In this document: positions 201 to 1,500 of the stretch, in pieces
Position numbering within the stretch: position 1 is the first letter of the stretch
Layout: each line of letters begins with the position of its first letter
Virus record (IMG/VR): IMGVR_UViG_3300029376_000363
Origin: a virus
Lineage: Duplodnaviria > Heunggongvirae > Uroviricota > Caudoviricetes
Strand: one strand, 5' to 3'
Length of the DNA stretch: 13,902 bases
Notes under the pieces: generated by a model
The model's input: only the letters and a program-made list of their open reading frames with translations
Told to the model about the DNA's origin: nothing
Databases searched by the model: none
Translations under genes and position numbers: made by a program

Positions 201-229
201 TTGCTAAGCGGCAGAAAAAGAGCTATACT
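201..229 (+). promoter_or_regulatory. Sigma70/SigA-type promoter for the three-gene cassette
   Basis: TTGCTA (201-206), 17-nt spacer, TATACT (224-229), about 37 nt upstream of the first cassette start codon. Confidence 0.5.
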
Positions 230-265
230 TAAATTGAGAAATTGTACTCAAAGGAGGTACGCTCT

Positions 266-487
266 ATGAGTGAATATAATATTGACATTGCCGATATGCA
301 GTGCTGGGTTTTCCGCATGGCTCAGTCCAAGTGGAAAATGTCTCCCAGCGACTGTGCTGAACTGTTTAAGAAATACGACATTCTTGGATTTATTTCTGAA
401 TGCTATGACATCCTTCATCTAAACGGTTACGCCTGTGTTCTTCACGATGTTGAAACCTTGTTAAAGAATCGAGGTGTATCCGTATGA
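266..487 (+). CDS. Small protein, DUF3791-like (73 aa)
   Basis: ATG at 266 with AAGGAGGT Shine-Dalgarno (252-259), 6-nt spacer; the TTG at 242 used by the ORF track lacks an RBS. Stop overlaps the next start (ATGA at 484-487). Family assignment from memory of the DUF3791/DUF3990 gene-pair pattern; unverified. Confidence 0.65.
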   Translation: MSEYNIDIADMQCWVFRMAQSKWKMSPSDCAELFKKYDILGFISECYDILHLNGYACVLHDVETLLKNRGVSV

Positions 488-1065
488 TCGAATTGCAGGA
501 TGGGATGCTTCTGTACCACGGTAGCTACATTGGTATCCCGGCGATTGACCTGAATCGCTGCTTTGGTGGACTCGATTTTGGCCGAGGTTTTTATCTTACA
601 TCTTCCTACGAGCAAGCGTACAATTACGTTCAGCTTTCGGTTAGGAAAGCGATGCGTATTGGTACAGTTCCAAAAGATTTCAACCCGGAAGACGGACAGA
701 TATCTGTTTACAAATTCCACTACGATCCCAACATATTAGCTTACTGTTTCCAAGGAGCCTCTGTTGAATGGCTTCATTTTGTAGCAGCAAACCGAAAAAA
801 GGATTTGTTCCCACAACTTTTGAAAAAATACGGCACCATCGACATCATCGGTGGAAAAATTGCAGATGACCAAACAGCCCACACCTTACAGCAGTATATC
901 GGTGGCGTTGACTTTGGTATCCCCGGCACACCGAAAGCAGACAAAATAGCTATTGAAAAACTTCTTCCCAATCGCCTAAAAGACCAATTCTGTTTTCGCA
1001 CGCAGGACGCCGTTAATCATCTTGAATATATAAGGAGTGACCGCTATGGAGATGTCAAACTATAA
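484..1065 (+). CDS. DUF3990-like protein (193 aa); possible ADP-ribosyltransferase-like fold
   Basis: ATG at 484 translationally coupled to the upstream gene; GAGGTG RBS. N-terminus MIELQDGMLLYHGS...DFGRGFYLTSSYEQA matches the remembered DUF3990 signature (lYHGS ... DFG.GFYLT). The H-G-S then Y arrangement is reminiscent of H-Y-E type ART folds (inference). Confidence 0.75.
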   Translation: MIELQDGMLLYHGSYIGIPAIDLNRCFGGLDFGRGFYLTSSYEQAYNYVQLSVRKAMRIGTVPKDFNPEDGQISVYKFHYDPNILAYCFQGASVEWLHFVAANRKKDLFPQLLKKYGTIDIIGGKIADDQTAHTLQQYIGGVDFGIPGTPKADKIAIEKLLPNRLKDQFCFRTQDAVNHLEYIRSDRYGDVKL

Positions 1066-1288
1066 CTTCACAGATACGCAGAAAGAAAGCTGTGCTGTCA
1101 GTCTCATGCGCGATACGGTCAAAGAACTCGCTTTGCGTGATACTATTTCCTATGAAGATGCACTGTTACGCTTCACAAATTCAAAAGTATATGAAACACT
1201 TTTCGACTATGATACCGGAATTTGGAGAGAAAGCCCCGACTATCTTCTGAATCTCTATGACTATTGCAATTCTAAAAAGACTGCCTAA
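1046..1288 (+). CDS. Second small DUF3791-like protein (80 aa)
   Basis: ATG at 1046 with AGGAG (1033-1037) 8 nt upstream; alternative GTG at 1037. Overlaps the 3' end of the DUF3990-like gene by 20 nt in another frame. Shares the aromatic YD-rich C-terminal pattern with the first small gene. Confidence 0.6.
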   Translation: MEMSNYNFTDTQKESCAVSLMRDTVKELALRDTISYEDALLRFTNSKVYETLFDYDTGIWRESPDYLLNLYDYCNSKKTA

Positions 1289-1405
1289 GTTTTCTTTCTA
1301 CCTGACTAGCACTACTAAATCGGCTATACTTTCAGCAGCAATCAGGTTTCGGTAACCTTGCGAGGTCCGAGGCCGGGAAGATGACCTTTAGGCCACCTTC
1401 TTTCT

Positions 1406-1436
1406 CCCCCAGTTGTGCACGGCTGGGGGATTTTTT
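1406..1436 (+). terminator. Rho-independent terminator (hairpin plus T6)
   Basis: Stem CCCCCAG (1406-1412) / CTGGGGG (1423-1429), 10-nt loop, then ATTTTTT (1430-1436). On the minus strand it is preceded, not followed, by the A/T run, so it acts on the + strand. Confidence 0.55.
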
Positions 1437-1457
1437 ATACCTTACCGCCAGACGATT

Positions 1458-1500
1458 GTGCTTATTTCATTCACAATATAAGCACGGTCGTTTGTTTTTT
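1458..1500 (+). terminator. Second hairpin with T-rich tail (possible tandem terminator)
   Basis: Stem GTGCTTAT (1458-1465) / ATAAGCAC (1478-1485), 12-nt loop, then GGTCGTTTGTTTTTT (1486-1500). Confidence 0.35.

Follow-up and report, generated by a model that had tools for sequence, protein, structure and literature searches.

ADP-ribosyltransferases (ARTs) are the basis of several bacterial toxin-antitoxin (TA) and defence systems, including RES-Xre/ParST/MbcTA, DarTG, and CmdTAC. CmdTAC (PD-T4-9) is a tripartite toxin-antitoxin-chaperone system with an mRNA ADP-ribosyltransferase, and HY-[E,D,Q] is accepted as the catalytic triad of its ART family (PMC11618068). The Pfam ART clan includes the domain DUF3990 (PMC7955679), which occurs as the C-terminal toxin domain of Rhs effectors of type VI secretion systems (T6SS; PMC4524185, PMC10763514, PMC12165300). 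Guilt-by-embedding in BREX, DISARM, and type I restriction-modification (RM) loci led to the 145 candidate systems designated PDC (Payne et al., bioRxiv 10.1101/2024.01.29.577857). One of them, PDC-M13, was recorded 3324 times in 6530 rumen genomes and is among the most frequent candidate systems (PMC13356809).

Here, we describe a cassette of three plus-strand genes (A, B, and C) between positions 201 and 1500 of a 13,902-nt stretch of viral DNA (IMG/VR record IMGVR_UViG_3300029376_000363), the whole of which is referred to as the window. A preliminary description of the sequence had regarded the cassette as a self-contained candidate TA or anti-phage module, which is in accordance with the matches of all three proteins to the PADLOC-DB models of PDC-M13 (E 1.7e-10 for A, 7e-30 for B, and 7.3e-11 for C, the last to PDC-M13C). 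Judged by these component hidden Markov model (HMM) matches and by the adjacency of the genes on one strand, rather than by PADLOC's own system-calling rules, the cassette is a member of PDC-M13. The same three families are found in one operon there (Payne et al., bioRxiv 10.1101/2024.01.29.577857); the content is identical, and the combination is not new to catalogues. PDC-M13 is a purely bioinformatic candidate. The copy described here is prophage-borne and located between tape measure and tail chaperone-like genes. B also matches the PADLOC candidates PDC-M10A (E 1.9e-14) and PDC-M42A (E 2.4e-4); at E ≤ 1, the three proteins had no reported PADLOC matches other than the PDC-M13, PDC-M10, and PDC-M42 models. 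DUF3990-like ART proteins thus recur in at least three PADLOC candidate systems.

We propose, with a probability of roughly 0.4, that the cassette is a TA-like or abortive-infection module carried as a prophage moron, with B as the toxin and A and C as its neutralisers. The physical observations of the preliminary description were confirmed, and its interpretation was partly supported.

Comparison with described systems

By analogy, the cassette would work most like the ART-based TA and defence systems named above. CmdTAC is a three-gene anti-phage TA-type system with an ART toxin of the diphtheria toxin family and an HY-[E,D,Q] triad, and the cassette, with its putative ART toxin, would resemble it. 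However, CmdC is a SecB-like chaperone and CmdA carries a long disordered tail, whereas both partners in the cassette are acidic helical proteins of ~75-80 amino acids; as far as the Pfam and PADLOC scans and the model of C show, neither the SecB-like chaperone nor the antitoxin with a chaperone-addiction tail that define CmdTAC and related TAC systems is found in A or C. The likeness to RES-Xre/ParST/MbcTA is structural only. B has no RES or other sequence match to these systems, its predicted motif is H-Y-Q instead of R-E-S, two partners are present instead of one, and a Pfam scan at E ≤ 1 revealed neither a RES toxin nor an Xre/DUF2384 antitoxin. In DarTG, the antitoxin DarG is a macrodomain enzyme reversing the modification, whereas A and C are helical proteins of ~9 kDa with no macrodomain match in Pfam. 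The same domain as in B occupies the antibacterial-toxin position of T6SS effectors that end in DUF3990 (Serratia Rhs5, Enterobacter RhsA variants), which are predicted toxins with a small downstream gene predicted to encode the immunity protein. In those effectors, it is joined to a secreted Rhs carrier, while B is a stand-alone cytoplasmic protein with two partners. Structural similarity further extends to other phage-encoded ART folds, namely ART-PolyVal of phage and conjugative polyvalent proteins and AcrIF11. The former belong, as domains, to giant injected proteins and the latter is a single anti-CRISPR, in contrast to the three-gene chromosomal or prophage module studied here.

Conservation of the gene trio and decay of gene B

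The three genes are tightly coupled, exactly as noted in the preliminary description: the start codon of B overlaps the stop codon of A in the sequence ATGA (484-487), and the overlap between B and C measures 20 nt (1046-1065). A Shine-Dalgarno sequence is present ahead of all three genes (Table 1).

Table 1. Features of the cassette and of its surroundings in the window
Feature	Position	Strand	Description
Tape measure gene, 5' end	1-113	-	Start at 113, divergent from the cassette; products in native loci 676-1969 aa with PF10145 (PhageMin_Tail)
Promoter	201-229	+	-35 box TTGCTA (201-206), 17-nt spacer, -10 box TATACT (224-229); consensus scan
Gene A	266-487	+	73 aa, pI 5.1 (acidic), DUF3791; ATG after ribosome binding site AGGAGG (252-257)
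Gene B	484-1065	+	193 aa, DUF3990, predicted ART-fold enzyme, putative toxin/effector; start overlaps stop of A
Gene C	1046-1288	+	80 aa, pI 4.5 (acidic), predicted four-helix protein, family absent from Pfam; ribosome binding site AAGGAG (1032-1037)
Terminator 1	1405-1436	+	Hairpin 1405-1430 with 11-bp GC-rich stem and 4-nt loop, followed by U6
Terminator 2	1450-1502	+	Hairpin 1450-1493 with 16-bp stem and 12-nt loop, GUUUUUU tail
Two small tail-module genes (phrog_709)	1504-2099	-	Convergent with the cassette; native products 54 aa and 126 aa
Chimera junction	2360-2382		23-bp k-mer common to both parts

For comparison, 80 loci, one per species, were collected with an alignment of B, and the A, B, and C families were traced in them by iterated HMMs. 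All three families are present in every locus that is not cut by a contig end. In relatives with at least 48% identity, the order is A-B-C and the genes are likewise coupled in the ATGA manner. The order B-C-A is found in a divergent clade (30-36% identity), whose third gene still scores as DUF3791 (A-type proteins of these loci, E 1e-7 to 3e-20). The position of A varies between the two orders, which explain the mixed A/B/C model labels of PADLOC, but the direct succession of B and C is invariant over the 80 loci. As a rule, B is a separate protein of full length whose start is conserved. In two independent divergent cases (P0276 and P0323), B and C are fused into one protein. A second C-like open reading frame (ORF) directly follows C in five loci (L020, L022, L023, L024, and L027), and two full A-B-C cassettes lie back to back on one contig (L017).

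The decay is asymmetric. B is internally deleted or split in L045, L052, L055, L075, L076, and L091, and a 2.3-kb insertion separates A and B in L015, with A and C full-length in each case. An intact B accompanied by a damaged A or C was found in none of the 80 loci. Since B accounts for ~56% of the coding length, the asymmetry of 6-7 to 0 corresponds to p ~0.02-0.03 under length-proportional neutrality. Such B-only decay would be expected of a gene whose product does harm once its partners are missing.

Fold and catalytic residues of B

B matches Pfam DUF3990 (PF13151) with 100.9 bits (cutoff 32.2, E 7e-29) over profile positions 1-151 of 152. Sub-threshold Pfam matches to ART-PolyVal and PARP together span residues 4-52; the ART-PolyVal match (PF18760) reaches 15.7 bits, below the cutoff of 31.2 (E 0.027), and covers residues 8-50 only. 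No further Pfam family, including RES, was reported for B at E ≤ 1. The AlphaFold2 (AF2) model of B is confident, and its structural matches were solely ART folds, such as diphtheria toxin, MbcT, ParT/RES, and PARPs. The highest match score was obtained for a cyanophage pre-ejectosome protein (9.4), followed by diphtheria toxin (8.6), MbcT (8.4), ParT (8.2), exotoxin A (7.5), PARP15 and tankyrase (7.4-7.6), RES toxins (6.6-7.6), AcrIF11 (6.6), and RhsP2 (6.6). A Foldseek search against viral models (BFVD) matched phage ART-PolyVal domains. According to the model, B adopts the ART fold of the diphtheria toxin/PARP clade with its split beta-sheet NAD+-binding core.

The motifs YHGS and GFYLT, already pointed out in the preliminary description, are located at residues 11-14 and 35-39. 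In an alignment of 37 sequences reaching ~30% identity, H12, D31-F32-G33, W96, R104, G124, A127, and Q168 are invariant, and Y11, G35-F36-Y37, T39, Q44, and D129 are conserved to at least 90%. H12 (LYHGS) on strand 1 and Y37 (GFY) on strand 2 fit the first two ART motifs. Q168 is part of strand 163-171, the penultimate strand, after which a single final strand follows; in this clade, the catalytic E, D, or Q is located on the penultimate strand. From this topology, we infer that the predicted triad of B is H12-Y37-Q168. The ART fold anticipated from the motifs is thus borne out by the model, but not its H-Y-E type, because the predicted third position is an invariant glutamine.

In a profile-profile alignment (hhalign) of B with a provisional sequence of the diphtheria toxin A chain, only GFY was aligned (GFY37 with GFY54, 2% probability), which serves as a lead only. 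The PDB sequence search with B alone or with a divergent profile (A2) gave no meaningful match, and in PHROGs, B weakly matches phrog_4700 (E 5e-4). A scan of NCBIfam had no match for A, B, or C. In one DUF3990 protein of 281 aa (P0340), the first ~120 residues resemble, by eye, a fragment of the type I RM specificity subunit HsdS; this would fit the embedding of the family in type I RM loci.

The partner proteins A and C

The preliminary description had assigned DUF3791 to both small proteins and regarded them as paralogous partners. The assignment was verified for A and, by Pfam, failed for C. A matches DUF3791 (PF12668) with 48.1 bits (cutoff 25, E 1.1e-12), and a protein identical to A is named DUF3791 in NCBI and UniRef. 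For C, no Pfam match was obtained at E ≤ 1, nor for 35 other sequences of the C family and four divergent C-type proteins. A search with the C-family profile gave 1098 matches, and none of the 120 listed carried any Pfam domain. A protein identical to C is called "DUF3791 domain-containing" in UniRef and hypothetical in NCBI. Neither small protein had a SecB-like match in Pfam, nor, apart from DUF3791 in A, any other.

A paralogous relationship could not be demonstrated. BLASTP revealed no similarity between A and C. The profile-profile comparison (hhalign) of the two families was co-linear and end-to-end, but weak, with a probability of 33-45% and E 2e-4 to 5e-4, compared to 0.4% for the reversed control. 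On sequence grounds, A and C may be very distant paralogues, C being at most a remote relative of DUF3791.

The AF2 model of C (pLDDT 78) consists of four helices. The median isoelectric point of the families is 5.1 for A and 4.4 for C, and their acidity suggests protein-binding neutralisers rather than DNA-binding repressors. A role of A or C as DNA-binding repressor was considered unlikely because both families are acidic. The C-type proteins of the B-C-A clade (e.g., P0357-P0411; alignment A4) share a strongly conserved acidic C-terminal tail (EEELxTGxITFPEEQI), which could be a peptide plugging the active site of the enzyme. C of the window does not carry this tail and ends in DYCNSKKTA.

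Transcriptional signals and base composition

The cassette had been described as lying between a near-consensus promoter and two hairpin terminators. The promoter reaches only 9 of 12 positions of the consensus, and matches of this quality are not rare in shuffled sequences (6 promoter-like sites in the actual sequence, 3.2 expected from shuffles). However, the -35/-10 pair, its spacing, and the 5' untranslated region are kept ahead of homologous cassettes in many species, despite unrelated DNA further upstream. The terminator hairpins are strong, each with a U-run: the folding energies are -20 kcal/mol (z -4.5) for the first and -19.7 kcal/mol (z -5.9) for the second hairpin, and 0 of 200 shuffles folded as well in either case. 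An Rfam scan of positions 1-2400 yielded nothing near the threshold. Another terminator-like hairpin with a T-run is located on the minus strand at 145-169, just upstream of the tape measure start codon. Transcription that runs across the cassette, antisense or late, would reach this hairpin ahead of the tape measure gene.

The lower GC content reported for the cassette holds with respect to its native prophage flanks (42.5% compared to 52.5-54.2%, ~10 points lower). Beyond position 2382, the neighbouring genes are E. coli DNA and not the surrounding phage genes they had been taken for.

Genomic setting

Two sources are joined in the window, a gut Clostridia (Blautia-type) prophage (1-2382) and an Escherichia coli island (2360-13902), and this chimera is most simply explained as a metagenome assembly artefact. 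Because of this chimerism, only positions 1-2382 represent the true neighbourhood of the cassette. Their identity to a siphovirus prophage found in gut Clostridia is 99-100% (AP028156.1, Blautia sp. HCP28S3_G10, and IMG/VR 3300029342_000159). A megablast search of 5,426 E. coli genomes gave no match for the cassette, nor for bases 1-2382 as a whole, and an affiliation of the cassette with the P22-like/E. coli genes filling the rest of the window was rejected on this basis.

The E. coli part is 99% identical to a chromosomal island adjoining yicC/rph; positions 2383-13902 correspond to NZ_CP025753.1 2057875-2069419 (L011), and 22 E. coli genomes match at least 80% of the window. The island encodes a tyrosine integrase, AntA, Ash, a TOPRIM-DUF927 primase, and P22-like gp14/DUF2824, gp7, and gp20. 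These P22-type head-completion and ejection genes are followed by a gp16-like lytic transglycosylase gene. As viewed, the island contained no capsid or tail genes, and it looks like a satellite or defective element with ejection proteins. The junction lies within an ORF on the minus strand (2112-2939), an in-frame fusion of 275 aa that contains the shared k-mer and joins the N-terminus of an E. coli gp20-like protein to the C-terminus of a Clostridia phage Band_7/SPFH protein. The native Band_7/SPFH protein also has exactly 275 aa, and the junction is 579 nt from both start codons.

In the native prophage, the cassette is located antisense within the late tail operon of a Blautia-type siphovirus. 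The region of the two small genes downstream of it has ~70% nucleotide identity to phages of Lachnospiraceae, Ruminococcus, and Clostridium, and their position suggests tail assembly chaperones. The antisense placement together with its own promoter and terminators would correspond to a typical moron layout. The site is constant within the prophage lineage. Among related prophages, the cassette is 67-85% identical, compared to 93-97% for the flanking tail genes, and the region after C cannot be aligned; one relative (L112) has ~280 extra unalignable bases there. The identical cassette persists in two decayed prophage remnants (L002 and L007), in which the tape measure gene is reduced to a stub. 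The idea that the cassette moves independently was rejected, as these seemingly non-phage copies carry the stub of the same tape measure gene and are therefore prophage remnants.

The native loci L001, L004, L006, L008, and L009 have a 440-aa SLFN_AlbA_2 plus HATPase_c_4 gene between terminase and portal (~18420-19750), whereas the variants L003, L005, and L010 are devoid of it; it appears to be a second variable, defence-like moron of the same phage. In L010, a PIN-domain gene lies beside the small terminase gene.

No conservation is seen among the genes directly adjoining the 80 loci (169 Pfam families in 138 proteins). Defence-type neighbours include PtuA, a type III restriction enzyme, PDC-S01, AbiLi, and SoFic. 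In Anaerobutyricum hallii, the cassette (B 67% identical) is located directly upstream of a cas6-cas8-cas7-cas5-cas3 operon.

Proposed mechanism and alternative explanations

In the proposed mechanism, the cassette would be expressed in the lysogen as a moron, which is made probable by its own promoter and terminators and by its antisense orientation relative to the late tail genes. A and C, translated from the same translationally coupled mRNA, would bind B and hold it inactive. C is probably the core partner, because it always directly follows B and is sometimes fused to it, and A would act as a second neutraliser or as a sensor. Loss or displacement of the partners, such as upon infection by another phage, would release B. 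It would then use NAD+ to ADP-ribosylate, or inactivate in some other way, an essential cellular target, or consume NAD+. The growth arrest caused by B would protect the population (abortive infection) and/or stabilise the element.

This proposal builds on the observed gene structure, modelled ART fold, family membership, conserved trio with its gene orders, B-specific decay, fusions, and GC anomaly. Its TA character is read from genomic proxies, namely translational coupling, B-specific decay with retained partners, B-C fusions, and acidic partners. The defence-gene neighbours, the divergence of the cassette relative to its flanks, the low GC content, the persistence in remnants, and the conserved promoter with the two terminators were also counted in its favour.

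Several points weigh against it. The full-text literature searched on DUF3990, DUF3791, and PDC-M13 yielded no functional study of any member; in this respect, the preliminary description was right in knowing of no experimentally defined function for the gene combination, catalogued though it already is as PDC-M13. The placement of Q168 at the position of the catalytic glutamate is deduced from strand order and motif pattern and not from a residue-level superposition, and a glutamine at this position could mean low or different activity or a pseudoenzyme. Expression of the cassette in lysogens is an inference only. The B-C fusions could be frameshift artefacts, because B and C overlap, and the decay asymmetry comprises only 6-7 cases to 0, some of them in metagenome-assembled genomes, in which frameshifts may be assembly errors.

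The alternative that survives best, albeit an unlikely one, is a pure addiction or stabilisation module with the same TA biochemistry, selected for the retention of the prophage or island rather than for defence. The survival of an identical cassette in decayed remnants next to a tape measure stub would be in accordance with such a role. So would the wide distribution: the exact protein occurs on at least 1000 contigs (in 6677 index blocks), and the frequency of PDC-M13 in rumen genomes is TA-like (PMC13356809). However, the family was found by its embedding in RM, BREX, and DISARM loci, some homologues adjoin defence genes or cas operons, and the strong divergence at a fixed prophage position fits an arms-race turnover better.

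It is distinctly less probable that the cassette is a phage counter-defence operon, in which B would act either like AcrIF11, by modifying a host defence protein, or on a host factor, as is thought for phage-injected ART-PolyVal domains, with A and C being small acidic inhibitor-like proteins. There are only 5 weak matches among 50,697 deposited phage genomes; IMG/VR contains 43 loci. Most of the 80 loci lie outside phage structural modules, with tail proteins accounting for just 2 of the 138 neighbours. The strict trio, the B-C fusions, and the B-specific decay with retained partners are unexpected for anti-defence genes, and DUF3990 also serves as the antibacterial toxin domain of Rhs proteins.

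We give as little credence to a non-toxic enzyme or pseudoenzyme, in which the glutamine-containing ART fold would serve for NAD+ or ADP-ribose binding or for a harmless modification or repair reaction, and A and C would be accessory subunits. Glutamine belongs to the accepted HY-[E,D,Q] triad, and H12, the DFG-GFY block, and Q168 are strictly conserved. The use of the domain in Rhs toxins and the preferential loss of B do not fit a harmless protein either. An orphan polymorphic-toxin/immunity cassette, with B as a toxin module awaiting recombination onto a secreted carrier and A and C as immunity proteins, would agree with the Rhs C-terminal toxins and their downstream immunity genes and with the tandem C copies and tandem cassettes, which resemble immunity or orphan arrays, but is highly improbable, since B begins right at the catalytic core and lacks any trafficking or pre-toxin domain, has its own ribosome binding site and is translationally coupled to A, is a full-length stand-alone protein as a rule, and since the absence of secretion or carrier genes near members and of recombination junctions at the 5' end of B has largely been seen already.

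Implications for DUF3990 and gut anaerobes

The ART-clan membership of DUF3990 and the candidate status of the system were already public; what stands out here is the abundance in gut anaerobes, the architecture with two partners, and the H-Y-Q triad. The gene orders, the B-C fusions, the B-only decay, and H12/Y37/Q168 indicate the likely toxic gene, its first partner, and the key residues. Should B prove to be an active ART toxin restrained by two partners, TA and anti-phage biology would gain a new ART family and a new three-component architecture, and this would also explain a common moron of Lachnospiraceae prophages. In its most far-reaching form, which we regard as doubtful, the proposal would make DUF3990 a new catalytic branch of diphtheria toxin-like ARTs (H-Y-Q), gated by two acidic helical proteins in a three-part sensor/antitoxin/effector complex. 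This complex would confer abortive-infection immunity on Blautia/Lachnospiraceae lysogens, either through ADP-ribosylation of a nucleic acid or a component of translation or through the destruction of NAD+. If this were true, PDC-M13 would rank with the most common functional defence systems in gut and rumen anaerobes.

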